The position numbers and the translations under genes were made by a program. The notes under the pieces are model-generated. The model searched no databases. It saw nothing but the letters and a program-made list of their open reading frames with translations, and was not told where the DNA came from. Source: an uncultured Bacteroidales bacterium (GTDB lineage: Bacteria > Bacteroidota > Bacteroidia > Bacteroidales > VadinHA17). From it: 64,000 nucleotides of DNA. Positions 8,405-46,221 of this stretch are shown in pieces. The number at the start of each line of letters is the position of its first letter. Position 1 is the first letter of the stretch. Location of the stretch: NCBI GenBank assembly GCA_963840965.1, contig CAWJAW010000009.1, positions 256,487 to 320,486 of the forward strand, written 5' to 3'.

Positions 8405-8414
8405 TTAAGATGAG

Positions 8415-8652
8415 TGGGAGAAAAGGAGAAGGGGAGAAGAGGAGAGAATGAATTAACTCCGTGAGAATCTGTGATTAACTCCGTGTTACTCCGTGTTTAA
8501 CATCTTGATAACCAGCGGTTATATTTGTATGACCACGTGGTTGAAGAACCCCCTTTTGGGGCAGGGGGTAAAACAGGCAGGGGGGTGAAACGGTTTCAGG
8601 GAGTCTCTTCGTCTCCCCTTCTCCCCTTCTCCCCTTCTCCCCTTCTTTCCTC
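8415..8652. repeat. inverted purine-rich/pyrimidine-rich arms enclosing AACTCCGTG modules and a GC palindrome
   Basis: GGGAGAAAAGGAGAAGGGGAGAAGAGGAGAGAA (8415-8447) faces (CCCCTTCT)x4 within 8604-8652. The interior has AACTCCGTG x3 and CCCCCTTTTGGGGCAGGGGGTA (8549-8570). Confidence 0.8.
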
Positions 8653-8702
8653 AGCCTGTTTGCAAATTTCTGTTATCTTTGCCCCGTTCAGTAACCGGGG
8701 AA

Positions 8703-9485
8703 ATGTCCACATTCTTATTTGACAAAATAATATTCGGTCCCGTCAGGAGCAGAAGGCTCGGGGTATCTCTTGGCATCAACCTTCTTCCGCTTAACCGGAA
8801 GGTCTGCAACTTTAATTGCATTTACTGCGAATGCGGCTGGACGGCCGGCGGATCAGATGAGAAAAGTCCGCTGCCCTCAAGGGAAGAAGTGTACAGGGCG
8901 CTCGAGACAAAGCTCGCTGAAATGAAGATCAGAGGTCTGGCTCCCGATGTAATCACCTTTGCAGGTAACGGAGAACCCACGCTTCATCCTGACTTCCCCG
9001 GTATAGTTGATGATTCCATCGAAATCCGCAACAGGTATTTCCCAGAAGCCAGGATAGCCGTCCTTTCAAACTCCACGAACATAACAGTTCCAAAGATAAG
9101 GGAAGCCCTGCTGAAAGTTGACCAGAACATCCTGAAACTCGATTCCGGATTTGACCTTACCGTCAGGGTTCACAACCAGCCGCGTGTCAATGTAAAAGTG
9201 AAGGAGCTCATTGAGAATCTTAGAGACTTCAACGGGCAGCTCATTATCCAGACCCTTTTCCTGAGAGGAAAACATGACGGCATAACAATCGACAACACCA
9301 CCCCCGAAGAGATTGAGGTATGGCTGAAGGCACTGGCTCTGATCCGGCCGGCCGAGGTGATGATATACACAATCTCAAGGGACACTCCCCAGGGGGACGC
9401 CCTTCACAAGGTACCTCTTGCCGATCTTAACCGGATAGCTGAAAAGGTCAGGAGGCTGGGAATAAAAACTGTTGTATCTGACTAG
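8703..9485 (+). CDS. radical SAM protein
   Basis: CNFNCIYCECGW matches the CxxxCxxC cluster motif near the N-terminus. ATG at 8703 (ORF starts at 8679). Confidence 0.8.
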   Translation: MSTFLFDKIIFGPVRSRRLGVSLGINLLPLNRKVCNFNCIYCECGWTAGGSDEKSPLPSREEVYRALETKLAEMKIRGLAPDVITFAGNGEPTLHPDFPGIVDDSIEIRNRYFPEARIAVLSNSTNITVPKIREALLKVDQNILKLDSGFDLTVRVHNQPRVNVKVKELIENLRDFNGQLIIQTLFLRGKHDGITIDNTTPEEIEVWLKALALIRPAEVMIYTISRDTPQGDALHKVPLADLNRIAEKVRRLGIKTVVSD

Positions 9486-9487
9486 CA

Positions 9488-10579
9488 TTGGATAAAATCA
9501 AAAATATACTTATTTGTCCGCTTGAATGGGGACTTGGTCATGCCGGACGCATGATACCGCTTGCAAAGGAGCTTCAGAAACGTAATTACAATGTTATAAC
9601 AGGATGCGGAAAGGTTCATCAGGAGCTGTTCAGCCGTGAACTGCCCGGTGCAGGGCACATCTATTTTCCGGGTTTCAGGCCAGGTTATTCGAGGTTCATC
9701 CCGCAATGGATTTTTCTTCTTCTCAAAACGCCTCTTCTCTTTTATCATATTGTTTCGGAACATATAAGGCTCAGACGGATCATCCGAAAGCACGAAATCG
9801 ACCTTGTGATAAGCGATAACCGTTTCGGGGCATGGAGCAGGAAAGTAAAAAGCGTATATGTCACCCACCTTCCTGTCATCCCGCTGCCCGACAGTCTGAG
9901 ATATCTCGAGTGGATCGGAGTACTGTTCCACAGGTTCTTCATCAACAGGTATTCGTACTGCCTTATTCCCGACCTTCCGGGCAAAATAAACCTGTCGGGC
10001 CGTCTCACACACGGGATAAAGCTTCCCAGGAACGTCAGGTTCATCGGGATACTGTCGAGGTTTTCAGGCATGACACCTACGGAATCGAATAATTTCAGTT
10101 TCCCTCACAACACCGTAGTATTATCGGGACCTGAACCACAGCGAGGCATCCTCAGGCGTAAAGTAACAAATGCCCTGAACCACTGGGATACAACCACAGT
10201 TGTGCTGGAAGGGAAGCCCGGTCACGAAACCAGGTCTGCAGCTAACGGAAAGGTAATCTCATACAATCACCTGGCAACCGAAGAAATGAGGGATGTTCTG
10301 GTCTCAAGCAGCAGTATCATCACCCGTTCGGGCTATTCTTCGATAATGGAGCTCATAAGCATCAGGTGCAGTGCAATGCTGATACCCACTCCGGGCCAGA
10401 CTGAGCAGGAGTACCTTGCCAGGCATCTTGCAGCAAAGGGATGGTTCCTCACAATCACTCAGAGACAGATCGATAAAATGATAACCCTTCCTCATCCTGA
10501 GCCGGCATGGCCCGACCTGATAATTGAAGAGAGCAGGGATCTGCTTGAGAAAGCTCTTGATGAGATCCTAAATCAGTAA
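9488..10579 (+). CDS. glycosyltransferase (GT-B, MurG/GT28-like)
   Basis: N-terminal ICPLEWGLGHAGRMIPLAKEL (G-rich loop) and C-terminal ITRSGYSSIMEL...PTPGQTEQ nucleotide-sugar-binding-like motif. Confidence 0.7.
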   Translation: MDKIKNILICPLEWGLGHAGRMIPLAKELQKRNYNVITGCGKVHQELFSRELPGAGHIYFPGFRPGYSRFIPQWIFLLLKTPLLFYHIVSEHIRLRRIIRKHEIDLVISDNRFGAWSRKVKSVYVTHLPVIPLPDSLRYLEWIGVLFHRFFINRYSYCLIPDLPGKINLSGRLTHGIKLPRNVRFIGILSRFSGMTPTESNNFSFPHNTVVLSGPEPQRGILRRKVTNALNHWDTTTVVLEGKPGHETRSAANGKVISYNHLATEEMRDVLVSSSSIITRSGYSSIMELISIRCSAMLIPTPGQTEQEYLARHLAAKGWFLTITQRQIDKMITLPHPEPAWPDLIIEESRDLLEKALDEILNQ

Positions 10580-11200
10580 AATAAACAGAATTATAATCAG
10601 GAAACCTGTCAGGTAGCCGGTCCAGACCTGTAAAGGATCGTGGGAATTCAGTTTAAGCCTTGCTGCGAGGATAAACCCGCTTGCTGCCAGCACCGCAAAA
10701 AGGTACCATGGTATAGGTGTGTACATCTTAACCCAAAGAGAGAAAACCGTTGCGGTGAGCGCTCCAGCCCCGGCTGCATGTATCGAGATTTTCCACCAGA
10801 AGTTGATCATCGACACCACGATCGACAGTACCGCTGTGGCAAAGATGAATGACTTGAGAAAGAACGGGATCTGATACCTGAGAACTATAAATGAGGTGGT
10901 GAAATACAGCATTGAGGCCGTCAGCATTGGAATAATACGTTCCCTTCTGTCCTCGAGGTGGTAAGAACTGATGAAGTTCCTCATCCTTAAAAAAGGAAGG
11001 AGCAGAAGCGGAATAAGAACATTGTTTACAAGCACCACGAGTAAGAGGACTCTTTTGGCTGAAGGAGGAAGGTATTTCAGGAATGTGGGAGCCGATATAA
11101 GAATTACCAGTCCGTACAATGGCATGAATAACGGGTGGAAGATGAACGAAAGGATTCTTGCCAGCTTGTCGGTTAAAGTGATATTGTTAAGGTTATTCAT
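10568..11200 (-). CDS. polytopic membrane protein, PAP2-like
   Basis: About 6 TM helices. Degenerate PAP2 motifs ISIHAAG and ARLKLNSHDPLQV. Confidence 0.55.
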   Translation of the reverse strand: MNNLNNITLTDKLARILSFIFHPLFMPLYGLVILISAPTFLKYLPPSAKRVLLLVVLVNNVLIPLLLLPFLRMRNFISSYHLEDRRERIIPMLTASMLYFTTSFIVLRYQIPFFLKSFIFATAVLSIVVSMINFWWKISIHAAGAGALTATVFSLWVKMYTPIPWYLFAVLAASGFILAARLKLNSHDPLQVWTGYLTGFLIIILFILLI

Positions 11201-17040: not shown

Positions 17041-17955
17041 ATGTCAATTGTAGTACAGGGCGTTACAAAGCTATATGGCAGTCAGAAAGCCCTCGATAAT
17101 GTTTCGTTTGAGATAAAGACAGGCGAGATCGTCGGATTTCTCGGTCCCAATGGTGCGGGCAAGTCGACCATGATGAAGATCATCACCGGCTTCATGCCCC
17201 CTACATCGGGAAAGGTGTTTGTGAACGGCATTGATACAGCCGGCGGGTCGCTCGAGATCAAGAAGAGGATCGGCTATCTGCCCGAAAACAATCCTCTCTA
17301 TCCCGAGATGTATGTAAGGGAATACCTTAAGTTTGCTGCCACACTGTACAAATCAGTACTTCCCGTAAAGGATCAGATTGACAACATCATAAAGATTACC
17401 GGGCTGGAGCCGGAGCAAAAAAAGAAAATAGGTTCACTTTCTAAAGGCTACCGTCAGAGAGTTGGTCTGGCGCAGGCTCTTATTCATAATCCCGATGTGC
17501 TGATACTGGACGAAGCCACCACAGGTCTAGATCCGAACCAGATAGTTGAGATAAGGAATCTCATCCGGGATGCCGGGCAGGAAAAGACAGTAATGCTGTC
17601 CACTCACATAATGCAGGAAGTAGAAGCGATCTGCGGCAGGGTGATTATCATCGACAAGGGAGTCATAGTGGCCGATGAAGAAAAGAGTGACATCTATTCG
17701 AAGATCAGCAGGGCACGGCAGACCATCCTGGTGGAGTTTGACAGGGATACAGATGAAGCTCTCCTGAGTGCGATCCCCGGAGCCGGAACGGTCAGAAAGG
17801 CAAAGGACAGGATCTGGATAATCGAGGCGCCGGGTGAAGCCGATGTCCGTCCGGCAATATTCTCATTTGCAGTCAGTAACAATCTTACAGTGCTGTCGCT
17901 TCAGAAACAGGAAAGCAATCTGGAGGAGGTGTTCAGGATGCTGACTAAGGCGTGA
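17041..17955 (+). CDS. gldA: ABC transporter ATP-binding protein, GldA-like
   Basis: Walker A GPNGAGKST, signature LSKGYRQR, Walker B LILDEATTGLD. N-terminus and length match the gliding-motility GldA as I recall it. The symbol is tentative. Confidence 0.75.
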   Translation: MSIVVQGVTKLYGSQKALDNVSFEIKTGEIVGFLGPNGAGKSTMMKIITGFMPPTSGKVFVNGIDTAGGSLEIKKRIGYLPENNPLYPEMYVREYLKFAATLYKSVLPVKDQIDNIIKITGLEPEQKKKIGSLSKGYRQRVGLAQALIHNPDVLILDEATTGLDPNQIVEIRNLIRDAGQEKTVMLSTHIMQEVEAICGRVIIIDKGVIVADEEKSDIYSKISRARQTILVEFDRDTDEALLSAIPGAGTVRKAKDRIWIIEAPGEADVRPAIFSFAVSNNLTVLSLQKQESNLEEVFRMLTKA

Positions 17956-17966
17956 GGGCATGAATG

Positions 17967-18011
17967 TCTTGCAAGTCGTGCAGGTCATGCAGGTCGTGCA
18001 GGTCGTGCAGG
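17967..18011. repeat. 9-nt tandem array (GTCKTGCAR) x5
   Basis: gtcttgcaa gtcgtgcag gtcatgcag gtcgtgcag gtcgtgcag. Confidence 0.9.
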
Positions 18012-18021
18012 CTTTGCACTT

Positions 18022-18122
18022 CGTAGCTTTCTTTGAACACCGTAGCTTTAGCGAAGGTGTTAGCGAAGAAGTGTCATTTCTCTGCGAAAACTCTGCGGTT
18101 TTCCTCTGCGAAACTCTGCGAG
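18022..18122. repeat. dispersed composite element; inverted copy at 43467-43592
   Basis: The reverse complement of 18022-18068 matches 43467-43513 at 46/47 positions by hand alignment. 18080-18122 is similar to the reverse complement of 43551-43592. Confidence 0.85.
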
Positions 18123-18292
18123 AAATTCTTGTTTTTCTAGCTTCTTTTTCCTTCCTTTGCCCCTCAGAATATGGTGGAGAAATTTGAGCTGATTGCAACC
18201 ACAGGAAAAAATGCTAAAATGCCTCTGATCCCGTCTTTCCAGTCAACCATTATTCCCACCAAATGTTGATATGTTAACTTAACAATTAAGAT

Positions 18293-19639: not shown

Positions 19640-19662
19640 TTTTACAGGTCTTGCAGGTCAGT

Positions 19663-19694
19663 ACGACTTGCACGACTTGCACGACTTGCACGAC
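19663..19694. repeat. 9-nt tandem array (ACGACTTGC) x3.5, inverse of the 17967 array
   Basis: acgacttgc x3 plus acgac. The reverse complement is GCAAGTCGT. Confidence 0.9.
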
Positions 19695-19715
19695 AAAACT
19701 CCCGGCTTTGCCGCT

Positions 19716-24381: not shown

Positions 24382-24512
24382 TACCCCCTGCCCCCCAAGG
24401 GGGGTTCTTCTTGCCCCCCTTGGGGGGTTGGGGGTTAGCCACCACTCCGGGGGGTTGAGGGAACTGTTTGTTGTTGATGACTCACATCCCATTGCACCCA
24501 CCCCCTGCCCCC

Positions 24513-24520
<8 letters not shown>
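24382..24520. repeat. GC-rich palindrome cluster
   Basis: TACCCCCTGCCCCCCAAGGGGGG (24382-24404), CCCCCCTTGGGGGG (24414-24427) and CCCCCTTAGGGGG (24508-24520, overlapping the hom stop). Confidence 0.85.
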
Positions 24521-27068
<2,548 letters not shown>

Positions 27069-27135
27069 GGCGTGCGGTATGCGGCTTGCGGCGCGAGGCG
27101 TGTGGCATTAGGAGCGAAGCATGCGGTGAATGAAT

Positions 27136-27168
27136 TACCGCGTACCGCGTACCTCGTACCGCGAACCG
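27136..27168. repeat. 7-nt tandem array (TACCGCG-like) x4.5
   Basis: taccgcg taccgcg tacctcg taccgcg aaccg. Confidence 0.85.
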
Positions 27169-27470: not shown

Positions 27471-27475
27471 AAAAC

Positions 27476-27579
27476 GGTACGCGGTATGCGGTACGCGGTA
27501 TGCGGTACAGCGGTATGCGGTATGCGGTATGCGGTACGCGGTATGCGGTATGCGGTATGCGGTACGCGGTAAGCGGTAA
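27476..27579. repeat. 7-nt tandem array (GGTAYGC) about x14
   Basis: ggtacgc/ggtatgc units run without interruption apart from one 8-nt unit. This is the left arm flanking the four-helix-bundle gene. Confidence 0.9.
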
Positions 27580-27628
27580 GAAGTACAAAGGTTGGTGACC
27601 TGCTGGTTAATTTCCAAAAGAAAATTCC

Positions 27629-27982
27629 TTACTTTTTTCTTGATAAGATTAACCTTGTTAGCATCGATGATATTTTATCGCATTCATCAACCAGTTGTTC
27701 CTGAGTTGACTTATCAACATATCCAATTTCAGATGCTATGATAAGCTGAGTCATCAGTTCAGCGGTAGATCCTTTTGCAATAAATAAGTATCGTATTGAA
27801 AGTCTGTTCGATCCCGATTCGTCTCCTTCAGCAATATTGCTGGAAATACTAACAGCGGCTCTTTGAATCTGATCCCTGAATCCAAAATCTCTCTTAAAAA
27901 ATTGATTTTGTGTTAGTTTATAGATCTTAACGGCAAGATCCCTGGCAATTTGCCAAACCTTAAGTTCCATGAAGTTTCCCAT
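27629..27982 (-). CDS. four-helix-bundle protein (23S rRNA intervening-sequence protein / S23p / Avd-like family)
   Basis: ELKVWQIARDLAVKIYKLT..FGFRDQIQRAAVSISSNIAEG....YLFIAKGSTAELMTQLIIA is the hallmark pattern of this family. 117 aa. Confidence 0.85.
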   Translation of the reverse strand: MGNFMELKVWQIARDLAVKIYKLTQNQFFKRDFGFRDQIQRAAVSISSNIAEGDESGSNRLSIRYLFIAKGSTAELMTQLIIASEIGYVDKSTQEQLVDECDKISSMLTRLILSRKK

Positions 27983-28065
27983 GATGCAGCGATTTAAAGA
28001 TTAATAAATTAATTAGCACGATATCCAAATATAATAAGAAACTTCACGCCGAGTACCACGCACAT

Positions 28066-28165
28066 CTTAATTCTTACCGCGTACCGCGTACCTCTTAACT
28101 CTTACCGCGTACCGCACACCGCGTACCGCGTACCTCTTAATTCTTGCCGCGTACCGCGTACCGCT
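28066..28165. repeat. higher-order array built on CGCGTACC (inverse of GGTAYGC)
   Basis: Three units of CTTAAYTCTTRCCGCGTACCGCGTACC(T). This is the right arm flanking the four-helix-bundle gene. Confidence 0.9.
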
Positions 28166-29688: not shown

Positions 29689-30272
29689 AAACGGATCCCC
29701 TCCTCGGAGGGGTTGGGGGTGGGTTAAGACAATGTGAGAGTGAGAGCGGGAGTGAGTAGAAAAACGTAATGGTAAACGGATCCCCTCCTCGGAGGGGTAG
29801 GGGTGGGTTAATAGTTATTATATAAATAATTATATGTCAAAAAAACGCAAAATCATCCCATATAATCCGGAACTTAAAGACCTGGCAAGTCAGCTCAGAA
29901 AGAATATGACTCTTTCAGAGGTTTTGCTCTGGATCGAGCTGAAAAATAAACAAATTCTTGGTTATGATTTTGACCGTCAGATTCCAATTGGGGATTACAT
30001 TGTCGATTTTTATTGCAAGGATTTAAGTCTGGCCGTTGAGATTGACGGGGATACTCATATATTCAAGTACGACGATGATGAGGTGAGGCAAAAGAATCTG
30101 GAGAAACTGGGTGTTCATTTTCTGAGATTTGAGGATATTGAGGTAAAAAAGAATATGGGGAATGTTCTGAGGGTTATTGAGGATTGGATTGAAAGAAGAA
30201 GACCCACCCCTACCCCTCCAAAGGAGGGGATCCTTAGAGAACCCACACCGAGCCCTCCAAAGGAGGGGATCC
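29689..30272 (+). mobile_element. DUF559-endonuclease mini-cassette bounded by duplicated terminal inverted repeats
   Basis: Left side: AAACGGATCCCCTCCTCGGAGGGGTWGGGGTGGGTTAA x2 (29689-29727, 29774-29811). Right side: the inverse copies ACCCACMCCKASCCCTCCAAAGGAGGGGATCC x2 (30202-30233, 30241-30272). The DUF559 ORF lies between them. Confidence 0.55.
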
Positions 30273-31795
30273 TTAGAGGACATATTTCTGCACCTGTTTT
30301 TGTTGGAAAACTTGCCATTGGCGGCACAAATCCTATCCGTATTCAGTCAATGACCAACACCGACACTCTCGACACCAAAGCCTCCGTTGCACAATGCATC
30401 AGAATAATTGAAGCCGGTGCCGACCTGGTGCGCCTTACTGCCCAGGGGATGAGGGAGGCGGCTTATCTTGCAAACATTAAAGCGGAACTGAGGAAGGCCG
30501 GATTTGAGACACCGCTTGTTGCGGATATTCATTTCAATCCCTCGGCCGCTGAACTTGCAGCAAGTATTGTCGAAAAGGTAAGGGTTAATCCGGGTAACTA
30601 TGCCGACAAGAGAGCATCATTCATAAAAGTGGAGTTCTCCGAACAGGAATACCGCGAGGAACTCGAAAGGATACACAAAAGGATATTGCCGCTTATCAAC
30701 ATATGCCACGAACACGGTACGGCTGTAAGGATAGGGGTCAATCACGGTTCACTGTCCGACAGGATAATGACCCGCTATGGCAACACCCCCGAGGGGATGG
30801 CAGTGTCGGCAATGGAATTCATAAGAATATTCCGGGCGGAGAATTTTCATAAGCTGGTACTGTCGATGAAATCGAGCGATACCGGCATAATGATAAAGTC
30901 TACCCACCGTTTGGTTGAGATGATGAAGGAGGAAGGATTCGCGTATCCTCTTCACCTGGGAGTGACCGAGGCAGGCGAAGGTGAGGATGGAAGGATAAGA
31001 TCATCGGCCGGCATCGGAGCGCTGCTGGCTGAAGGTATTGGCGATACTATCAGGGTTTCGCTGTCGGAAGCTCCCGAGAAAGAGATACCGGTGGCAAGGG
31101 AAATCCTGAATTTCCTTGCAGGTTCAGCCGGACGGGTAACAGATCCTGACAGCATCCTTGATTTCAAAACACACACTAAGCCATATAAGCCGGAAGTGGT
31201 GACTAATAATGACGGCATGTTTTCAGGAGAAGAAAATCAATGTTATAACAATGTTATAACGTTGTCAAAAGACAGTTTACCGCCTCCAGATATATTTAAA
31301 TATGAAGATGTTATCCTGAACGGAGAATTCAACGAGGATAACCCGGAAAAGCTGGCAATCGACTCAGCCGCCCTTCTTGGAAGATACTTCATCACACGTC
31401 AGGCTGGCGGAATATGCATCACGAACAAGGGAAAAATCAAAGGAGACAAGCTGAAGGAGCTTTCATTTTCAATTCTGCAGGCAACCGGAGCAAGGATTAC
31501 AAGGGTGGTTTATCTGTCATGTCCCACCTGCGGCCGGACCAGGTTCGATCTTCAGGAGGCGGTGAGGGAGGTGAAGGCTGTAACCGGTCACCTGACAGGA
31601 CTGAAGATTGCAGTGATGGGATGCATAGTGAACGGTCCGGGCGAAATGGCCGATGCGGATTACGGATACGTTGGGGCGGGGAACGGGAAGGTGCATATCT
31701 ACCGGGGAACAACCCAGGTGTTAAAGAACATTCCGCAGGAATCGGCTGCTGAAGCTTTACTGGCTCTTATTGAGAATGATCAGAGAGCGACGTGA
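29834..31795 (+). CDS. ispG: in-frame fusion ORF: N-terminal DUF559 (Vsr-fold endonuclease-like) domain + 4-hydroxy-3-methylbut-2-enyl diphosphate synthase
   Basis: Residues 1-125 (LRKNMTLSEVLLWIELKNKQILGYDFDRQIPIGDYIVDFYCKDLSLAVEIDGDTH..LRFEDIEV) are DUF559. The linker PTPTPPKEGILREPTPSPPKEGILRG is a translated repeat. Then IGGTNPIRIQSMTNTDT...GCIVNGPGEMADADYGYVG is IspG with the long Bacteroidota-type insert. There is no ATG/GTG/TTG between the repeat and the IspG core. Confidence 0.85.
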   Translation: MSKKRKIIPYNPELKDLASQLRKNMTLSEVLLWIELKNKQILGYDFDRQIPIGDYIVDFYCKDLSLAVEIDGDTHIFKYDDDEVRQKNLEKLGVHFLRFEDIEVKKNMGNVLRVIEDWIERRRPTPTPPKEGILREPTPSPPKEGILRGHISAPVFVGKLAIGGTNPIRIQSMTNTDTLDTKASVAQCIRIIEAGADLVRLTAQGMREAAYLANIKAELRKAGFETPLVADIHFNPSAAELAASIVEKVRVNPGNYADKRASFIKVEFSEQEYREELERIHKRILPLINICHEHGTAVRIGVNHGSLSDRIMTRYGNTPEGMAVSAMEFIRIFRAENFHKLVLSMKSSDTGIMIKSTHRLVEMMKEEGFAYPLHLGVTEAGEGEDGRIRSSAGIGALLAEGIGDTIRVSLSEAPEKEIPVAREILNFLAGSAGRVTDPDSILDFKTHTKPYKPEVVTNNDGMFSGEENQCYNNVITLSKDSLPPPDIFKYEDVILNGEFNEDNPEKLAIDSAALLGRYFITRQAGGICITNKGKIKGDKLKELSFSILQATGARITRVVYLSCPTCGRTRFDLQEAVREVKAVTGHLTGLKIAVMGCIVNGPGEMADADYGYVGAGNGKVHIYRGTTQVLKNIPQESAAEALLALIENDQRAT

Positions 31796-31810
31796 ATTGC
31801 TTCTGAAAAC

Positions 31811-31846
31811 GTCTTGCGGTCTTGCTGTCCTGCAGTCCTGCGGTCG
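31811..31846. repeat. GTCYTGCRG-type short repeats
   Basis: gtcttgcggtcttgctgtcctgcagtcctgcggtcg. The related 16-mer array at 46169-46204 is in inverse orientation. Confidence 0.7.
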
Positions 31847-31954
31847 TTACAGATTGTTTATCAGCATAAATCTGTGGGATTTCACTCTACGTAAAATGCG
31901 AGAAGCTTTTTCTTTTTCGTATTCACACCCTGAGGCCTTAATGCCTTAACGCCC

Positions 31955-35764: not shown

Positions 35765-35880
35765 CCCCCCTTCCCCCAGGAAGACTACCCCCCAACCCCC
35801 CCAGGGGGGGGCTCACTCCCTGGACCCGACCCCCCTTGGGGGGCAGGGGGTAGGGGGCCAGGGGTAGGGTCTTGGGGGTA
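35765..35880. repeat. GC-rich palindrome cluster inside the PqqD-to-ABC gene string
   Basis: CCCCCCCAGGGGGGGG, and CCCCCCTTGGGGGGCAGGGGGTA (35830-35852), which is the exact inverse of 24382-24404. Confidence 0.85.
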
Positions 35881-35906: not shown

Positions 35907-37688
35907 ATGAACGGAAAGATCAAACTATTCAGGAAAGCCCTGGCCCTTGTCTATGACAGCGCGCCCGGGTGGGCCACGGTGAACATCGTGATCTCGGTCC
36001 TGCAGAGCATTTTTCCCCTTGCCCTTGTCTGGCTGATTAAGCTTCTGATAGATGAAATTACCAATGCTGCTCAAGCCGGCACGGGAGCGGTCAATATAGT
36101 GCCGATGGTGATCGCAGTGGTAGTCGTTTACTTCCTGGATGAGGTATGTTCCGATTCGGGCAACTTTGTGCGCAGCAAGCAGTCGGTGAAACTCGAGGGA
36201 TATATGTACAACCTGCTTCACTCGAAAGCTGTGAGGCTCGACCTTATCAACTTTGAGCATCCCGGATATTACGACTGTCTGTCGAGGGCAACATCCGAAG
36301 CTCCATGGAGGCCAAACAACATACTGAACAACATAGTATCGATGTTCCGGGGATTGCTGTCGCTGCTGCTGATGGCCGGACTTCTGTTCACCCTGCACTG
36401 GGGGGTTGCCCTGATGCTGCTGGTGGTGAACATTCCGGGGATATGGCTCAGGCTGCACTATGCCGATATTCTTTATAACTTTCAGAGGGAACAGACACCC
36501 GAAGCCAGAAAGTCGGCGTATTTCAGCTGGCTCCTTACCGGCGACAGGCCTTCAAGAGAGATCAGGCTGTTCGGGTTGGGTAACTACTTCATCTCGCTGT
36601 TTAAGAAATCCTTTAACAGGCAGAAGGAAGAAGAACTGAACATCCTCAGAAAAAGGACAGTTATTGAACTGATATCGGATGTGGTCAAGGCTTCCGCAAT
36701 ACTTGTACTGCTCCTGGTGATAGCCAGGCATACGGTTTCGGGAGATCTCAGTCTTGGACAGATGGCCATGTTCCTGCTGGCATTCAGGCAGGGTATGACC
36801 TACATAAAGGATCTGTTCGTTTCGGTGGCCGGGCTTTATGAAGACGGGCTGTATATAGGCGACACATTCGAATTCCTCGATCTGAAGGAAAGCGTAGTGG
36901 CCAATCCGCCGGTCACGGTTCCCACTGAGCTGAAATCGGAGATCAAAGTTGAAGATATTTCGTTCACCTATCCCGGGAATGACTATGCAACCTTAAACAA
37001 GGTTTCGTTTGAGATAAAGAAGGGTGAGATAATTGCGCTGGTTGGTCCCAACGGAGCCGGGAAAAGCACCCTTGTGAGGCTGCTCACCCGTCTTTACGAT
37101 CCGGATACAGGCAGTGTGAGATGGGACGGAAATGATATTAAAACAATGGATCCTGATCAGTTCAGACTTTTCTTTTCGGTTGTTTTTCAGGATTTCATGC
37201 TATATAACCTTCCGGCCGGGGAGAACATCAGGATGGGAAATATTGATGCACCGGACCCGGATGAAAAGATCAGGAAGGCTGCCGCAAACTCGGGTGTTCA
37301 TGAACTTCTGAACAATCTGCCGAAGGGCTACGACACCACAATCGGGACCCTCTTTGACGACAGCAGGGAGCTGAGCTGGGGCGAATGGCAAAAGATAGCG
37401 CTTGCGAGGGCCTTGTTCCGCGAGTCGCCGGTTCTGATCCTCGATGAACCCTCCAGTTCGCTCGATGCGGATACGGAGCATGAGATATTTAGCCGTTTCA
37501 GGGAGATAGTCAACGGACGTACCTCCATTCTTATAACTCACAGATTTACCAATGTAACCCTGGCTGACAGGATAATTGTGCTGGAGCACGGAAGCATAAC
37601 GGAAACCGGATCGCATGAGGAGTTGATGAAGATGAAGGGGAGATATTGGGAGATGTTTAGGAAGCAGGCGGGTAGGCATGGGGCGTGA
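35907..37688 (+). CDS. ABC exporter, fused permease/ATPase (MsbA/McjD-like architecture)
   Basis: Six-TM N-terminal half. Walker A GPNGAGKST, signature LSWGEWQKIALARA, Walker B ILDEPSSSLD. About 593 aa. Confidence 0.85.
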   Translation: MNGKIKLFRKALALVYDSAPGWATVNIVISVLQSIFPLALVWLIKLLIDEITNAAQAGTGAVNIVPMVIAVVVVYFLDEVCSDSGNFVRSKQSVKLEGYMYNLLHSKAVRLDLINFEHPGYYDCLSRATSEAPWRPNNILNNIVSMFRGLLSLLLMAGLLFTLHWGVALMLLVVNIPGIWLRLHYADILYNFQREQTPEARKSAYFSWLLTGDRPSREIRLFGLGNYFISLFKKSFNRQKEEELNILRKRTVIELISDVVKASAILVLLLVIARHTVSGDLSLGQMAMFLLAFRQGMTYIKDLFVSVAGLYEDGLYIGDTFEFLDLKESVVANPPVTVPTELKSEIKVEDISFTYPGNDYATLNKVSFEIKKGEIIALVGPNGAGKSTLVRLLTRLYDPDTGSVRWDGNDIKTMDPDQFRLFFSVVFQDFMLYNLPAGENIRMGNIDAPDPDEKIRKAAANSGVHELLNNLPKGYDTTIGTLFDDSRELSWGEWQKIALARALFRESPVLILDEPSSSLDADTEHEIFSRFREIVNGRTSILITHRFTNVTLADRIIVLEHGSITETGSHEELMKMKGRYWEMFRKQAGRHGA

Positions 37689-37875
37689 GGCGTGAGTCGT
37701 GAGGCGTGAGACGAAGGGACGAAGAGACGGAGGGACGAAGGGACGGCGTGAGTCGTGAGGCGTGAGGGAGTAAAGCCAGGCTCAGGGCTCAGGGCTCAGG
37801 GCGCAGGGTTCGGCTGAAGGGGAGATAACTCCGTGTTACTCTTTTTTTACTTCGTGCGACTCCGTGTTTAAACTC
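37682..37875. repeat. mosaic of 7-8-nt tandem arrays
   Basis: (GGCGTGAG/TCGTGAG)n, (ACGAAGGG/ACGGAGGG)n, GGCGTGAG again, (GGCTCAG)x3-4, then the AACTCCGTG..ACTCCGTGTTTAAAC module. The first unit supplies the ABC exporter's TGA stop. Confidence 0.9.
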
Positions 37876-38270: not shown

Positions 38271-38441
38271 GATAGGTGTTTGCAATAAGGTTTTACGGGT
38301 ACGTCTCGCTGCCAATATCCTCGTACCTGGTTAATCCGTTCAAAGCGGATGGGTCGCCCTGACCCCTCGGGTCCCCGGAGTTCGCTGATTTTCCTCCGGG
38401 GATCTTCTATTCGTCGTGAGGGGTGAGGCGTGCGACAAAAG

Positions 38442-38480
38442 GTCATGCAGGTCGTGCAGGTCTTGCAGGTCGTGCAGGTC
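38442..38480. repeat. 9-nt tandem array (GTCNTGCAG) x4
   Basis: gtcatgcag gtcgtgcag gtcttgcag gtcgtgcag gtc. Same family as 17967 and 44697. Confidence 0.9.
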
Positions 38481-38570
38481 ATTCTCAAAAGCTGACAGAT
38501 GTTAGTGATTTTCTGCCAACTGGTTAGTGGTTGCCTTTACGCCGTAATGCCTTTACGCCTTTGCGCCTTC

Positions 38571-39041: not shown

Positions 39042-39129
39042 TGATTGTGGTTTTCATATATAACTGTGGGGAGGGGGGGATTAGTATGTCCGGGGATCGT
39101 CTGTATTATGTGTATAACCCTGGTTGCTT

Positions 39130-39245
39130 TAACCCTGGCTTTAAAGCCAGGGTTTGAGCAGCCAGGGTTTGAGCAGCCAGGGTTAGGCAGCCAGGGTTAG
39201 GCAGCCAGGGTTAGGCAGCCAGGGTTAGGCAGCCAGGGTTATACA
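39130..39245. repeat. perfect 24-nt palindrome followed by a 14-15-nt tandem array x7
   Basis: AACCCTGGCTTTAAAGCCAGGGTT (39130-39153). Then GCCAGGGTTTGAGCA x2, GCCAGGGTTAGGCA x4 and GCCAGGGTTATACA x1 (39146-39245). Confidence 0.9.
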
Positions 39246-39311
39246 GCCCAAGATCGTGAGCTGAGATTATGTAGCAGATACAGGTTATGATATACTCATG
39301 AAGGGATAGGA

Positions 39312-39752
39312 TCAGGTCTGACTATTATACTGGGTGAAGCCGTGTTGCCTGATATACTCCTCGCACTCCTGATCCCAGGTTTTCGATCTGTGATGAGATT
39401 CCTGATTACGGATATAGTTCCTTACTCTGTTGATGTGTGATTCGCTGATCGAGGCGGCATAGTATTCGTCGGCCCACTCGAATCTGGTTTTGATAAGCTG
39501 GATCTTGTTTATCCAATGTGCGGATTCCCCCTTGATCAATTGCATCACTTTCGACAGCGCCTGATCACAGCCGAGCATAAGCAGACAGTGAAGGTGTTCG
39601 GTGTGTCCGTTCAGGAAATCAATATGTATGTCTTTCGAAGCTGCATTGGTACGGATGTGGTTTATCACTTCATACTTCCTTCCGGGATAGAGGCAAGGTA
39701 CCCGGTTTTTGGTGCCCCACACGCAGTGGATCCAGATTTTTACGTAGGACAT
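39312..39752 (-). CDS. IS200-like Y1 (HUH) transposase / REP-associated tyrosine transposase-like
   Basis: IWIHCVWGTKNR.., HUH motif in GHTEHLHCLL, catalytic Tyr context RVRNYIRNQESHH. 146 aa. No IS605-type tnpB partner. Confidence 0.85.
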   Translation of the reverse strand: MSYVKIWIHCVWGTKNRVPCLYPGRKYEVINHIRTNAASKDIHIDFLNGHTEHLHCLLMLGCDQALSKVMQLIKGESAHWINKIQLIKTRFEWADEYYAASISESHINRVRNYIRNQESHHRSKTWDQECEEYIRQHGFTQYNSQT

Positions 39753-39884
39753 GAGGATTGGGGTTAGTAGTTATACTGGTGGTGAGCTTCGTATGTCTGC
39801 GCCCCGCCCCCGCTGGGCAGCCGGGGTTGGGCAGCAGGGGTCAGATAGCATATGATGGGCAGCAGGGCAGATGGCAGACATGGT

Positions 39885-40469: not shown

Positions 40470-40513
40470 TTTTTAAGAGTTAAGAATATGATTATGTTAA
40501 CATTATGTCCATA

Positions 40514-40828: not shown

Positions 40829-41104
40829 TTATTTCAAATGTCTTAAATCCTCAAAAGCTCCACCGTCCATATTGTCCATTCCATTGTTGCCATTGATAAT
40901 CTTGCCGTTAATGATAATGCCTGTTTTAAATTTATAACCACCTTCCAACCAATAGATTGGCCCATCTACAGCAGTAAATAACATCCATATAATATCCAGC
41001 TCCTGATCTGAATTGTAAACCTTTTCTCCTGTGAATTGCATATGACAGTAAAGGAGAGTAATAAAATGCTTATAAATTCCTTTTTCATACTGTAATCTGA
41101 TCAT
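40829..41104 (-). CDS. hypothetical ORF in AT-rich region (possibly a gene remnant)
   Basis: 91 aa with Gly/Asn-rich repeats (GIIINGKIINGNNG). Protein-like reading continues past the stop in another frame (NGRYGFFETGKIKG). Confidence 0.25.
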   Translation of the reverse strand: MIRLQYEKGIYKHFITLLYCHMQFTGEKVYNSDQELDIIWMLFTAVDGPIYWLEGGYKFKTGIIINGKIINGNNGMDNMDGGAFEDLRHLK

Positions 41105-42318: not shown

Positions 42319-43074
42319 TTAACTGCTCCAGTTGTATAGATTATATTCTGGATAACCTCTAGATATTCTCAATTCTAGATCTCCTTCGAACAGACCACCA
42401 CAATAATCAGCACATCTTACTTTACCAACTTTTACTTCATATATTGGATCACCTTTTACACCAGCTATGGCATCAGTTAAGATTCCCTTAGTATCACCAT
42501 CCTCATCCTTCGGCATGACCAGCAGCACCATATTTTTATCAGCGTACTCTTCATTTACTCTTACCTGAACCATCTTTCTTCCCTCGAAGCGGTAGCCGGT
42601 GTTTTCAACATCGTTGTCGATGGGATGGGCGGCGACGGTGAAGGAAAGGGTACCTTTCGGGTAGAAGCTCGAAGGATAGGGGCAGTAGATATAGCAGTCA
42701 TTCTTTGAAAGGAAGTTAATCAGATCACTGGTATTGCCCTTGGACTCCGATGAGGTGCATCCTTTAATAAAGCCGGTCCGGAGGTTTCTGAATGATCCGG
42801 CGACACTCTTGGATTCATCCATAAGGTCGCTGAAGGGCAGGCTGTAGCATTCACGGTCTTCCCTTGAAAGGGAAACAAGTTCGTTAAGCACGGCTTCATC
42901 CTGTATAACATCGGCAAGGATTTGTGCTGCCTGATCAAGATTGGTCTTGAGAAGCGTTTCAGAATCGGTGAGGGCTCTCCTGCCGATCAGATCCTGATTA
43001 ATGGGTCCTGAATCATATTTTTCGCAGCTTGCCAGAGTAAGGCAAACAGCTATAACACAGACAATCTTTTTCAT
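42319..43074 (-). CDS. hypothetical lipoprotein
   Basis: MKKIVCVIAVCLTLASCEKYDSG lipobox (ORF opens at 43101). Protein-like reading continues beyond the stop at 42319. Confidence 0.6.
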   Translation of the reverse strand: MKKIVCVIAVCLTLASCEKYDSGPINQDLIGRRALTDSETLLKTNLDQAAQILADVIQDEAVLNELVSLSREDRECYSLPFSDLMDESKSVAGSFRNLRTGFIKGCTSSESKGNTSDLINFLSKNDCYIYCPYPSSFYPKGTLSFTVAAHPIDNDVENTGYRFEGRKMVQVRVNEEYADKNMVLLVMPKDEDGDTKGILTDAIAGVKGDPIYEVKVGKVRCADYCGGLFEGDLELRISRGYPEYNLYNWSS

Positions 43075-43466
43075 TTTAGAAAAATGTTTTGAATTGAACA
43101 TTTGGGTTATAAGCCCTTTGTTATATTTAAGGTTGCGACCTGTGGGGTAAGATCCCGGCGGATTGGCCGCTTTATCCCCGGGAGATGAGTCAGTTCTGTT
43201 TCATAGGCACGAGGTTTTACATGCAGTGAGACATTATGTTTATTCCACAAACAACATTAATTCAGTTTAAAATCAACCGCACCGTACTCCCTTTCACTGT
43301 ATTGCAATAGCAATATTAAAATGCGCCGGGGCCAGAATAAAATTTTTTTGCAATTATTTTTCGAAAAAATGAAAAAAATTTTCCGCGGGGGTATATATAA
43401 TAAAAAGGTATGGTTTGAAACACGAGGGGGAAGGGTATGAGGTATGAGGCGTGAGGCGTGAACCAC

Positions 43467-43592
43467 CTTCGCTAAAACCTTCGCTAAAGCTACGGTGTTC
43501 AAAGAAAGCTACGGCGGTCGAAGGGCGTGAAGGCGAAGAAGAAGAAGTTTCTCGCAGATTTGCGCAGAGGAAAACCGCAGATTTCCGCAGAG
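43467..43592. repeat. dispersed composite element, inverse copy of 18022-18122
   Basis: CTTCGCTAAAACCTTCGCTAAAGCTACGGTGTTCAAAGAAAGCTACG ... CTCGCAGATTTGCGCAGAGGAAAACCGCAGATTTCCGCAGAG. Confidence 0.85.
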
Positions 43593-43625
43593 GGCTTAAC
43601 CACGGTGTAACACGGAGTGTCAAAG

Positions 43626-43768
43626 AGATGCGTAAATCCCGAGCGCAGTTTCGGGGCAAGTCATCGAACTCATAAAACTCCGTGCGACTCCGCGGTTAAA
43701 TTATTGATTATAAATGAATAACTTCGTGTTACTCCGTTCCTAACTCCGTGCGACTCCGTGGTTAAACC
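43626..43768 (+). repeat. ~143-bp element, left direct repeat flanking HEPN-MNT
   Basis: GATGCGTAAATCCCGAGCGCAGTTTCGGGGCAAGTCA..CATAAAACTCCGTG..ATTATTGA..AACTCCGTGCGACTCCGTGGTTAAAC. Roughly 80-85% identical by eye to 44743-44886. Confidence 0.8.
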
Positions 43769-43885
43769 AATGGGCAAAGCCCTTCCGTGGTTAAGTCCCT
43801 GTGATTCCGTGGTTAAAGCAAGGGACAGGGGGTGAAGCTAAGCAAAAAACTGTGTGGGTGGGGAAAGGCAATTACATACGCCATC

Positions 43886-44610: not shown

Positions 44611-44742
44611 AATGCAAATCTACAAAATAAATGGATTGGCTGAATGGATGAAACCACTTATCGCTGATTTTAAGGCGACAAGGCGTGAAAGAGGAGAGGT
44701 CGTGCAGGTCATGCAGGCGCAGGTCAAGCAGGTCGTGTTAAA

Positions 44743-44886
44743 GTGATGCGTAAACCCCGAGCGTAGCGTCGGGGCAAGTCACCGGATTCATAAAACTCCG
44801 TGTTACTCCACAGATAAATTATTGAATATCAATAATTAACTCCGTGTTCCTCCTTTCTTAACTCCGTGCGACTCCGTGGTTAACTC
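44743..44886 (+). repeat. ~143-bp element, right direct repeat flanking HEPN-MNT
   Basis: GTGATGCGTAAACCCCGAGCGTAGCGTCGGGGCAAGTCA..CATAAAACTCCGTG..ATTATTGA..AACTCCGTGCGACTCCGTGGTTAAC. Confidence 0.8.
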
Positions 44887-44915
44887 CTTGCGACTCCGTG
44901 GTTAAAGAACCCCCT

Positions 44916-45635
44916 TCAAGGGGCAAAGGTTCTTACAACTGCATCCTTAATTGAGATTTTACCGGCGCCAAGCGAATTGTCCGATCCCAGGAGAAAATCA
45001 TTTGCAATTGTTGTGATGGATCTGCCTAACTGATCAATATCGACCGGCCTTATATGCCAGTCAGATTTCTGAAAAAGAAAAACCGGGAAGCTTTTAATAC
45101 GTTGTTCCACGTCAATCTCGTTGATTATTGCCTTGTTTTTAGCTTCGCCGAAAACCTCCATCCAGTTAAAGCTGTAGTTCTGAGATATCATGCATATATC
45201 AAAGACATCCTTTGGTTCATCGCGGCTGACAACAGCTGTAAGCTTATTTGTCAGTATATTAAGAGGTGTATCTATAAAACCATATTCATATTTATTGGCG
45301 ACACCACACCTGTAAGCAGTATCATTTACAAATTCAATCTTAAGCGCTCCTTCTTCGTCTTCAATATAAAAACGAACAAAATCCTCGTAAATAGTGCTTT
45401 GTTCCTTTAGCAGCGAAACTTGTCTTGCCAGGACTGTCTCAATATCCTTTACAAGAACATGAAACTCATGACTTTTATTCAGAAAAAAATACAGATCCTC
45501 ACTGAAGCGGTGGTTGAGATAAAATCTCCCCAGTGCAGTCCCGCCGGTCAGGTAAAAGTTACCAATTACCGGCTTCAAAGCCTGAAGCACCTTATCCTGC
45601 GTCCGGTAAAGCCTCCTGTAATCTTTTCCTGACAT
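44916..45635 (-). CDS. AbiEii/AbiGii-family nucleotidyltransferase toxin-like protein
   Basis: FYLTGGTALGRFYLNHRFSEDLYFF matches the family's N-terminal motif (GGTAL...RxSxDlDf) as recalled. Confidence 0.75.
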   Translation of the reverse strand: MSGKDYRRLYRTQDKVLQALKPVIGNFYLTGGTALGRFYLNHRFSEDLYFFLNKSHEFHVLVKDIETVLARQVSLLKEQSTIYEDFVRFYIEDEEGALKIEFVNDTAYRCGVANKYEYGFIDTPLNILTNKLTAVVSRDEPKDVFDICMISQNYSFNWMEVFGEAKNKAIINEIDVEQRIKSFPVFLFQKSDWHIRPVDIDQLGRSITTIANDFLLGSDNSLGAGKISIKDAVVRTFAP

Positions 45636-45897
45636 ACTTGTATTTTTTACGGACTGATTCCGGCCATAACGATGCGATAACCTTCTCAGTCATCATCTCC
45701 TTAACCTTTTCAACAGGTACAAGTTGGATGACTGTGAACCACGGTAAACCCGTCAGCATTCTGGTAAATAACTGCTCACGGCTTAAATGACCGGCTTCTT
45801 TAATCCTGCCGTCAAGCAAGCCATCCAATTCGGCGGGTGATATGGAGTAATCCCACATGACGGATTTGAGAATTTTATGACGCTGCCGTTTATCCAT
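45592..45897 (-). CDS. small upstream partner ORF (putative antitoxin)
   Basis: 101 aa, directly upstream of and overlapping the AbiEii-like ORF by 44 nt. No family recognised. Confidence 0.5.
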   Translation of the reverse strand: MDKRQRHKILKSVMWDYSISPAELDGLLDGRIKEAGHLSREQLFTRMLTGLPWFTVIQLVPVEKVKEMMTEKVIASLWPESVRKKYKYVRKRLQEALPDAG

Positions 45898-46168
45898 TCA
45901 TTAAAATGCTGCATTTCAACAAATATACTCAATATTTCGCATTTACGGGAAGGAGGAAAGGCAAGAAGGCGTGAGGATTAAGGCGTGAAGCGTGCTCCGT
46001 GTTACAAATGGTTAAACTCTTGCAATTCATATCGTTTCAGGGCAAATAATTATCGTTTTACGATATCCGGGTTATTGTAAGCAATGCCAGACGGGGCGTT
46101 GCCCCGCCCTATACTATTCCAGGCCTACGGCCTGAGTAAGAGATGGAAAATTCTGCAGCCCTGTCAGC

Positions 46169-46204
46169 GACCGCAAGACTGCAGGACCGCAAGACTGCAA
46201 GACC
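46169..46204. repeat. 16-nt tandem repeat x2.25
   Basis: GACCGCAAGACTGCAR x2 plus GACC. Inverse relative of 31811-31846. Confidence 0.8.
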
Positions 46205-46221
46205 TTCTTGCCGTCATGCCT

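Follow-up and report, generated by a model that had tools for sequence, protein, structure and literature searches.

Intergenic tandem repeats of about 7 nt have been described as short tandemly repeated repetitive (STRR) sequences, long simple sequence repeats and TAACTGA heptamers; mixed units are often concatenated in them, and their distribution is patchy and includes the Bacteroidetes (PMC4679880). For the TAACTGA heptamers of Beggiatoaceae, Cyanobacteria and Bacteroidetes, a role as cis-acting RNA elements has been proposed (MacGregor, 2015; PMC4679880). In the intervening sequences (IVSs) of rRNA genes in Leptospira, Coxiella and Xanthomonas, which have long been proposed to be mobile or selfish elements, an open reading frame (ORF) of the PF05635 family lies in the loop of a long stem of terminal inverted repeats. 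The 23S rRNA IVS of Coxiella carries such an ORF with a 28-bp terminal stem that is cut by RNase III, and the number of its tandem heptamers varies among strains (PMC4990558). Other comparable systems are the repetitive extragenic palindromic (REP) sequences and bacterial interspersed mosaic elements (BIMEs), together with the REPIN (REP doublets forming hairpins) and their RAYT (REP-associated tyrosine transposase) genes; the miniature inverted-repeat transposable elements (MITEs); and free-standing homing endonuclease genes, among which the Vsr-fold enzyme I-Bth0305I has been listed with DUF559 (PMC3424549). In this study, the mosaics of short tandem repeats and palindromes that fill the intergenic spaces of a 64-kb stretch of the Bacteroidales contig CAWJAW010000009.1 (the window) were compared with these systems, with emphasis on two small genes, of the PF05635 (four-helix-bundle) and DUF559 families, that the repeats enclose.

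The mosaics are probably, if not strongly so, lineage-wide selfish or neutral slippage-prone repeats that turn over far faster than the genes around them, and not a conserved cis-regulatory code. Confinement to intergenic DNA, presence or absence at orthologous sites, changes of copy number between species and between strains, association of each gene type with repeat ends of its own and a MITE in a relative were all directly observed. A preliminary description of positions 8405-46221 had treated the repeats as a single system that could not be assigned to any described family; instead, at least four types of element are superposed, several of them with clear precedents, namely STRR-like heptamer arrays, cassettes of IVS type that carry a four-helix-bundle gene between terminal inverted repeats, hairpins resembling REP sequences, and MITEs. 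In the literature, nothing specific was found on the CACGGAG motif, on DUF559 with inverted repeats, or on four-helix-bundle genes with heptamers beyond two reports (PMC4679880, PMC4990558).

The window is of Bacteroidales type, as judged from its giant genes of type IX secretion system (T9SS)/SprB type, its MetK, MetH, CysS, IspG and RNase R and its TAnnTTTG-type promoter boxes, which precede, for example, 8679 and 28219. The closest public sequence that could be fetched is an NCBI Bacteroidales metagenome-assembled genome (MAG; GCA_049294075.1, locus L202), which is syntenic with window positions 17850-37405 over 20 kb at 86-91% DNA identity. In addition, a metagenome scan with CysS gave about 30 contigs with the order hom-metY-[x]-cysS-[y]-ispG-rnr at 71-87% CysS identity, where x and y denote two intergenic spaces. 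The fetched loci carry L-numbers and their genes are crude ORF calls; coverage of intergenic and coding DNA in the window was counted on a curated gene map. The genome-scale extent of the repeats was judged from relatives, the window being 64 kb of its own genome.

Tandem Repeats Finder (TRF) returned 61 array rows for the window, covering 1301 of 7851 intergenic nt (16.6%) and 332 of 56149 coding nt (0.59%), an intergenic enrichment of about 28-fold. An array was present in 17 of the 22 intergenic regions of at least 50 nt inside 8405-46221, which agrees with the original impression that nearly every intergenic space is filled. The limited vocabulary of units first reported was recovered in full and is confined to intergenic DNA; small accessory genes are bracketed by mosaics, as had been stated, and two long-range relationships were reproduced exactly, 18022-18068 being the reverse complement of 43467-43513 at 46 of 47 positions and 24382-24404 the exact inverse of 35830-35852 (23/23), with a relative at 8549-8570. 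The likeness to REP/BIME mosaics was also upheld, extragenic palindromes occurring singly or in alternation at 24382-24440, 35783-35860, 8549-8590 and 29689-29815. Modules are common not only to distant loci but also to different species: loci in other Bacteroidales MAGs, which had been fetched only because they contain a AACTCCGTG-type module, carry arrays of GACCGCAA (L008, L026, L030), AGGCGTG (L042), GGCTCAG (L068), GTTTATC (L021) and GGGGAGAA (L008), and L008 additionally has the DUF559-type 39-mer and a CTCTGCG module, while GACGAAGG arrays recur in L003 and L225-L228. The motifs are thus not restricted to the window. Array density declines as the relatives become more distant, being 16.7 nt/kb in the window, 10-48 nt/kb in the closest contigs and 0-5 nt/kb in most relatives at 71-75% identity. 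The published units TAACTGA and STRR CCCCAGT/TTGGTCA/CAACAGT have no tandem copies in the window, nor are there arrays of HIP1 (highly iterated palindrome 1). Unlike STRR and TAACTGA repeats, the arrays here stand in inverted pairs around specific gene families and include periods of 8, 9, 10, 14 and 16 nt; like them, they are missing from the same site in related strains.

The four-helix-bundle gene matches PF05635, the '23S rRNA IVS protein' family (Pfam E = 3.6e-34, 117.6 bits; cut-off 33.8), and is bounded by inverted heptamer arrays (Table 1) whose arms, 78 nt long and 81% complementary, pair in the predicted fold (dG -255 kcal/mol, z = -11). Inverted heptamer arrays bound the gene at 8/8 distinct genomic sites, comprising the cysS/metY site of the window and seven others fetched; four of these contexts, found by look-ups, place it beside giant surface-protein genes (in two settings), beside AAA_14/DUF4143 genes and beside an NTP_transf_5 gene; the remaining three are L047, L042 and L144. 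The architecture recurs at the same site in L122, L125, L202 and L204-L213, and at other sites in L047, L042, L144 and L214-L222. The array units vary among sites (CGGNNNG, GAGATAT, GCGTAWA, GTATTAT), and an identical protein may be accompanied by arrays of different unit number or composition (L214/L215/L216; L204 versus L205), so that the arrays evolve much faster than the gene. The protein collection holds approximately 2000 close homologues, many on very short contigs. The resemblance to the rRNA IVS extends from the ORF in the loop of a long terminal stem to the strain-variable heptamers beside it (PMC4990558); unlike the rRNA IVS, the cassette lies between protein-coding genes at at least eight different sites, with no rRNA in the window, and its stem consists wholly of heptamer arrays (up to ~100 nt per arm) and not of a unique 28-bp repeat. 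Among the fetched loci, L001 (an ENA contig encoding an identical four-helix-bundle protein) has insertion sequence (IS) elements of the IS3 family in the heptamer arrays on both sides (1372-1395 and 1958-1985), L222 (1-1560 of a 1.2-Mb contig) has two four-helix-bundle genes within 1.2 kb on opposite strands, and L042 has a four-helix-bundle fragment adjoining a GIY-YIG-like gene and then (ACCTTGA)17.

The DUF559 gene (Pfam E = 1e-27) is likewise enclosed, by repeats with a 39-nt period in two copies (TRF); those at 29689-29815 have the form GGATCCCCTCCTCGGAGGGG..GGGGTGGGT and face the inverse 39-mers across the gene, and the flanks pair in the fold (z = -7.1). A third inverted pair, the 8-mer arrays at 8417..8646 (30 nt, 90% complementary), pairs in the RNA fold of 8405-8678 (z = -5.7), so that folding, a check proposed in the preliminary description, joins the flanks in three inverted-pair regions. 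DUF559 also has approximately 2000 close homologues. Three DUF559 subtypes each have their own cognate inverted hairpin, and G/C hairpins of this type with a G-rich tail also occur alone, without a gene. The cassette is missing at the same site in L202, L122, L124, L145 and L146, whereas L133, L134, L136, L143 and L223/L224 have it, with 1-6 copies of the flank. In L223/L224 (ERZ25039554 contig_58828, 138160-141513), four tandem DUF559 genes with a period of 573 nt lie between cysS and ispG, preceded by six direct copies of the cognate hairpin. At a metK>metH site, an identical DUF559 protein is accompanied by 4 or ~9 GACGAAGR units in different strains. As in REP-RAYT systems, short G/C-rich intergenic palindromes lie near gene 3' ends singly, in opposed pairs and in clusters, a small gene is flanked in inverted orientation and each gene subtype has cognate repeats; however, the gene flanked here encodes a PD-(D/E)XK, Vsr-fold nuclease and not a Y1 transposase, the sole Y1 gene has unrelated flanks, and no conserved GTAG-type head was identified. 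As with free-standing homing endonuclease genes, a small nuclease gene lies between housekeeping genes, is present or absent in close relatives and is tandemly amplified, whereas such genes have not been described with cognate hairpins on their flanks, and the cleavage role of DUF559 here is putative.

Orthologous intergenic spaces differ in content even where the genes are syntenic. Between the genes of an ATP-binding cassette (ABC) ATPase and metK, the window and L202 agree in the identity and order of the modules but not in their copy numbers (GGCRTGAG 1 versus 4, module A 2 versus 1, module B (CTCTGCGAAA) 4 versus 2). The metK-metF space of L202 is 222 nt long and contains ~15 extra TACCGCG-type heptamers after metK, and this locus also has hairpin-rich insertions of 500 and 900 nt that the window does not contain. 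In the metY leader, the (GATAAAC)n/(CGCGGTA)n arrays of the window correspond to unrelated G/C hairpins in L202, and L123 carries G/C hairpins there as well; L122/L125 have heptamers of other sequence, L124 has an inverted AACCAGG pair, and L139/L141 have nothing at this position. Space x (metY-cysS) is where the window, L122 and L125 have the four-helix-bundle cassette; L123 and L124 carry CACGGAG hairpins there, L127 carries hairpins of other kinds, and no element is present in L139 and L141. Space y (cysS>ispG) is repeat-free and 38-70 nt long in L124, L146, L145 and L122; it is filled by a complete CACGGAG/CTCCGTG hairpin in L123, by 9-mer arrays in L127 and by solo CCCCTCC..GGAGGGG hairpins in L130, L142 and L149, and it contains a second four-helix-bundle gene in L144 and DUF559 genes of two subtypes in nine contigs, with 1-4 genes each. 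These differences are insertions, deletions and slippage, and not conserved sites.

A long hairpin of the form (CACGGAG)n-loop-(CTCCGTG)n has the AACTCCGTG module as one of its arms. The module had been reported in + orientation only; its eight exact copies (8455, 8477, 37827, 43676, 43742, 44794, 44838 and 44860) and all 12 copies of the 24-nt module family are indeed +, but an inverted arm lies at 43596-43625, and the apparent uniformity results from the window containing mostly single arms. Of the positions first quoted, 43675 and 44793 were corrected to 43676 and 44794, 43720 reads AACTTCGTG and 45987 is degenerate. The complete hairpin of the window, at 43594-43700, starts with GCTTAAC and ends with GTTAAAT (fold z = -3.1). 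When one genome per GTDB species was scanned with AACTCCGTGNNACTCCGTG, at least 120 stretches were obtained, against a chance expectation of ~70 matches in the whole collection (an estimate for uniform composition). The matches are clearly not due to chance, as they share an extension, GGT(T)AA(A), that was not required, recur several times within a genome and for the most part are accompanied by an inverted partner. The full element reads TTT(A)ACCACGGAGT-NN-CACGGAG...loop...CTCCGTG-NN-ACTCCGTGGT(T)AAA, with 3-4 units of 10 nt per arm, and its fold is a series of 7-bp helices with small internal loops between them (z = -4.4 to -6.1).

Among the matches listed, 232 arms include 61 pairs with CACGGAG ahead of CTCCGTG and only 10 with the reverse arrangement; the loops of the 61 hairpins are 10-199 nt long and none contains a gene, and a cargo-carrying version was sought among these matches and discarded. 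In the same set, the median distance is 37 nt from hairpin to gene 3' end and 131 nt to gene start. The orientation of AACTCCGTG relative to genes at the at least 120 GTDB loci was rejected as a signal: the element is a palindrome, so that orientation reports which arm matched, and the asymmetry in distance is artefactual. Complete hairpins occur in at least seven phyla (Bacteroidota, Spirochaetota (Treponema), Planctomycetota, Alpha-/Gammaproteobacteria, Myxococcota, Elusimicrobiota and Gemmatimonadota), and mis-binning is unlikely since some belong to contigs 0.9-5 Mb in length. Rfam 15 does not contain them, and they are rare in viral contigs, with only two IMG/VR matches, so that carriage by phages was rejected. 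Two MAGs, MFD03899 and MFD00032, contain an element of 245 bp with the hairpin at its core; this element has terminal inverted repeats of 17 bp and target duplications of 7-8 bp, and sits in the loops of CCCCTCC..GGAGGGG hairpins. This insertion into loops shows directly that nesting builds mosaics; the terminal repeat of the 245-bp element is absent from the window. The CACGGAG hairpins resemble MITEs, being small, non-coding, palindromic and multicopy with a relative of this kind, and differ from them in lacking a detected target duplication or parent IS and in having tandem 10-nt arms and a core that crosses phyla.

The features of the window are collected in Table 1. For 13 of the 16 genes checked, the stop codon lies inside repeats or repeats begin 0-20 nt past it. 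The loop of the 24500-24523 palindrome provides the TAA stop of the homoserine dehydrogenase gene, the ABC transporter gene has its stop codon within the arrays at 37674..37875, the G/C hairpin that ends the 44660..44925 composite has the AbiEii stop codon in its loop, and the (GACCGCAAGACTGCAG)2.2 array abuts the stop of a gene for an SprB/PKD protein of 1823 aa. The array at 31808-31846 is 90% complementary to that at 46168-46206, with the same orientation to the upstream gene in both.

Table 1. Repeat arrays, hairpins and repeat-bounded genes of the window, in order of position.
Feature	Position	Strand	Components
Inverted 8-mer arrays	8417..8646		(GGAGAAGR)n 8417-8445 versus (TCTCCCCT)n 8612-8646 (TRF); enclosed: CTCCGTG arm 8452-8501, mini-palindrome ACCACGTGGT 8536-8545, G/C hairpin with GGGGGTA tail 8549-8590
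Concatenated arrays	17947..18130	+	Begin inside ABC ATPase stop codon; GGCGTGAG, (GTCGTGCAG)5, module A (CGTAGCTTT/AGCGAAGG) 18022-18068, module B ((CTCTGCGAAA)4) 18078-18130
Opposed 9-mer-array hairpin	19640..19700		(CAGGTCNTG)2 and (ACGACTTGC)3.6, between convergent metK and metF; fold z = -3.6
G/C palindromes of DUF559-end type	24382..24523		Back to back 24382-24440; third copy 24500-24523; fold z = -5.9
metY 5' leader arrays	27027..27168	-	(GATAAAC)6 and (CGCGGTA)4.7 in mRNA sense, between SAM-I 27285-27398 and ATG 27025
Four-helix-bundle cassette	27475..28164	-	Between cysS and metY riboswitch leader; (CGGTAYG)14.7 27475-27578; PF05635 gene 27629-27982; inverse (TACCGCG)-type arrays 28049-28164
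DUF559 cassette	29689..30278	+	2x GGATCCCCTCCTCGGAGGGGTnGGGGTGGGTTAA 29689-29815; DUF559 gene 29834-30193; 2x inverse 39-mer 30197-30274
Stop-adjacent arrays	31808..31953		(GTCYTGCR)4.4 past ispG stop 31808-31846; (GCCTTAAY)2.4 against rnr stop 31935-31953
G/C palindromes and (GGGGGTA)n	35765..35880		Start at S24 peptidase stop codon
Concatenated arrays	37674..37875	+	(AGGCGTG)5, (GACGAAGG)4.5, (GGCGTGA)3, (GGCTCAG)4, then CTCCGTG arm 37826-37875
Arrays	38405..38569		GGCGTGAG-like units, (AGGTCGTGC)4.6, (GCCTTTAC)4.6 touching stop of minus-strand gene 38571-39041
Y1 (IS200/RAYT-like) transposase	39115..39865	-	Gene 39312-39752
Composite	43434..43830	+	(GGTATGA)(TGAGGCG) units; inverse module A 43465-43513; inverse module B 43545-43592; complete CACGGAG/CTCCGTG hairpin 43596-43700; further CTCCGTG arms to 43818
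Second composite copy	44660..44925	+	GGCGTGA units, (AGGTCRTGC)4.6, small hairpin, CTCCGTG arms 44793-44906
Arrays	45950..46206		GGCGTGAG units and degenerate CTCCGTG arm 45950-46016; (GACCGCAAGACTGCAG)2.2 46168-46206

If the mosaics are selfish or neutral repeats, they would accumulate only where they are tolerated, that is, between genes. They have four layers. The first consists of cassettes in which a single small gene is enclosed by repeats able to pair as a long terminal stem, the two types being the PF05635 gene between inverted heptamer arrays and the gene of the Vsr-fold nuclease DUF559 between inverted G/C hairpins with a G-rich tail. Geneless copies of the cassette ends, scattered as solo hairpins or arrays, form the second, and the geneless long hairpin (CACGGAG N2-3)3-4 - loop - (N2-3 CTCCGTG)3-4, of which the AACTCCGTG modules of the window are mostly single arms, the third. 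The fourth consists of plain 7-9 nt arrays that would grow and shrink through slippage until they reach a functional boundary, typically a stop codon, and composites would arise when one element inserts into another's loop. Recombination or homing would carry the cassettes into cognate solo repeats, DUF559 serving as a putative nuclease, and, by analogy with the 23S rRNA IVS, the long stems would spare neighbouring genes by being cut out of transcripts by RNase III. A bolder form of this proposal, possible but doubtful, is that the PF05635 (Avd/S23p-like) and DUF559 genes are the active cores of undescribed array-bounded mobile cassettes with tandem-repeat-stem ends, moving via folded single-stranded DNA intermediates or by homing into cognate solo repeats; the STRR/TAACTGA heptamer arrays would be their footprints or landing pads, and the CACGGAG/CTCCGTG hairpin their most successful geneless derivative, recognised by a widely conserved factor.

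Several points weigh against the selfish or neutral reading. No transposase or recombinase was linked to any element, we know of no mobility function for four-helix-bundle proteins, and in an all-against-all comparison of the 1532 ORFs within 2 kb of the CACGGAG module no protein family recurred. Target-site duplications were not definable for the cassettes or for the CACGGAG hairpin of the window, and at the metK>metH DUF559 site (L225-L230) the 3' hairpin copy is direct and not inverted. Furthermore, the recurrence of the CACGGAG core in at least seven phyla and of the same short units in several species is unexplained by pure neutral slippage, and the module order between the ABC ATPase gene and metK, kept in two species, means that some arrays are long-lived, possibly because they are functional.

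This last point leads to the proposal that the arrays and hairpins are cis-acting RNA elements, as put forward for the TAACTGA heptamers, which we consider unlikely for the mosaics as a whole. It would suit the position of (GATAAAC)6 directly upstream of the metY start and downstream of an S-adenosylmethionine (SAM)-I riboswitch, the frequency with which repeats abut or contain stop codons, the constant orientation of several units to the upstream gene (31808 versus 46168; GGCGTKAR units) and the shared module order ahead of metK; heptamer arrays just upstream of start codons have also been described in overlapping taxa (MacGregor, 2015; PMC4679880). However, unrelated elements or none occupy the orthologous metY leader, cysS>ispG space and metK 3' side, copy number differs among strains with identical proteins, and the composites at 43-46 kb are antisense to all flanking genes. 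The repeats of the window and the sampled relatives matched no Rfam family at gathering score, only the SAM-I and SAM-II riboswitches being found, and the hairpins gave only sub-threshold look-alikes of miRNA precursors. Nor are the hairpins canonical intrinsic terminators: the palindrome is prolonged by a T-run on its 5' side and an A-run on its 3' side, where such a terminator would have a 3' T-run. A regulatory role is therefore disfavoured as a general explanation, because close relatives have different or no elements at the same positions, although individual arrays, such as those in conserved module order upstream of metK, may have one. The metY SAM-I leader has ~260 nt extra between aptamer and start codon, the two tandem arrays included. 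Readings of the repeats as terminators, multi-frame stop codons or G-quadruplexes each suit only some units, and an RNA panhandle of metK between inverted 9-mer arrays was discarded because both the SAM-II riboswitch and the likely metK promoter come only after the 5' array.

Spread of REP/BIME-like repeats by single-strand (HUH/Y1) transposition, driven by the IS200/RAYT-like gene of the window or its paralogues, is improbable. It would explain a replication-related strand bias, and single-stranded DNA transposons reportedly acquire an orientation bias linked to replication. Over ~38 kb, exact AACTCCGTG (8/8), exact GGCGTGAG (8/8; shuffle mean 1.39, with 0/100 shuffles reaching 8) and intergenic GTCGTGCAG (6/6) lie on the + strand only, regardless of the strand of flanking genes. 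Cumulative GC skew is lowest near 25 kb. The transposase gene itself is flanked on one side by a perfect 24-nt palindrome and the tandem 14-mers (AGCCAGGGTTAGGC)6.8 and on the other by degenerate direct copies (hairpin fold z = -4.7). Against this, AGCCAGGGTTAGGC and the palindrome occur nowhere else in the window, so that the gene which the preliminary description had placed in the mosaic system is indeed flanked by repeats, but by private ones that are not cognate with the main vocabulary. Its label as a RAYT was also not sustained: the protein is a Y1 transposase (Pfam Y1_Tnp, E = 4.7e-23) that reaches neither the IS200 nor the RAYT cut-off of NCBIfam, scoring 53 bits where 55 are required and 24.5 bits where 80 are required, respectively. 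Furthermore, heptamer arrays and G/C hairpins are seen in both orientations, the strand bias derives from ~7 intergenic regions, several with one duplicated composite, and no Y1 gene lies beside the hairpins among the at least 120 loci.

The possibility that 43-46 kb is an integron-like array, with HEPN-MNT and AbiE cassettes between attC-like CACGGAG/CTCCGTG hairpins, is very improbable. Toxin-antitoxin genes, which form the cargo here, are typical of chromosomal integrons; HEPN-MNT is bracketed by a 162-nt direct repeat (43604-43765/44722-44883, 83% identical), and the ends of the complete hairpin at 43594-43700 fit RYYYAAC...GTTRRRY. However, the window has no integrase, single hairpins lie between housekeeping genes in many phyla, the arms consist of 3-4 periodic 10-nt units unlike attC, 0/61 hairpins among the matches listed enclose a gene, and many copies end in GTAAAA and not GTTRRRY. 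That the repeats are artefacts of assembly or sequencing, as frameshift-split metH and metF and overlapping ORF pairs with their suggestion of indel errors might imply, is a practically negligible prospect, since the same arrays and hairpins occupy orthologous positions in independent Illumina and long-read assemblies from different projects (L001, L122, L125, L202, L203, L204-L213).

Some further observations concern the gene map. The genes metF (224 + 118 aa; 19716-20670) and metH (952 + 296 aa; 20680-24343) are split into overlapping ORFs in the window and intact in L202 (317 and 1216 aa), and further pairs of ORFs overlap by 100-150 nt (11218-12840/12693-14099; 51713-53593/53487-54527). 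Indel errors in a long-read assembly are the probable cause, the alternative being that the genes are pseudogenes; small indel errors being likely, the homopolymer lengths in the palindromes may be inexact. The riboswitches are a SAM-II at 18168-18227 (+) ahead of metK and a SAM-I at 27285-27398 (-) ahead of metY (O-acetylhomoserine sulfhydrylase-like); the ORF 27050-27325, previously taken as a gene, belongs to the SAM-I leader, and the 653-aa ORF 29834-31795 is not one gene but DUF559 and IspG read through repeats. The low-GC island 39885-43101 (31-41% GC versus ~49%) has five ORFs without a Pfam or NCBIfam match and almost no tandem arrays, and looks like recently acquired DNA that repeats have yet to colonise. 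The PqqD-like, ScmC-like, S24 peptidase and ABC transporter genes at 34045-37688 form a conserved cluster, also in L202, which resembles a peptide-maturation ('SynChlorMet'-type) cassette. At 38290-38400, 3' of a 69-aa helix-turn-helix (HTH) gene (38061-38270), several stable hairpins (GGTACG..CGTACC and CCCCGGAG..CTCCGGGG) without an Rfam match may mark a small RNA or a terminator region. A 31-codon ORF at 37864-37959 (MFKLLDFMAKNYQYSCRFCKKVAILPKNINP, CxxC motif) begins directly after a CTCCGTG arm, possibly by chance.

The arrays have practical consequences: they break short-read assemblies, many homologues lying on contigs of <2 kb, they cause adjacent ORFs to be annotated as one, as happened to DUF559 and IspG, and, because stop codons lie in repeats, they rewrite the 3' ends of genes. 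For 35 years, intergenic short tandem repeats have been recorded in Cyanobacteria, Beggiatoaceae and Bacteroidetes with neither a source nor a function assigned to them, and the PF05635 'IVS protein' and DUF559 are among the most abundant unexplained small genes in those phyla. Both gene families lie inside repeat-bounded cassettes whose ends make up much of the intergenic vocabulary, so that two old puzzles become one testable question.

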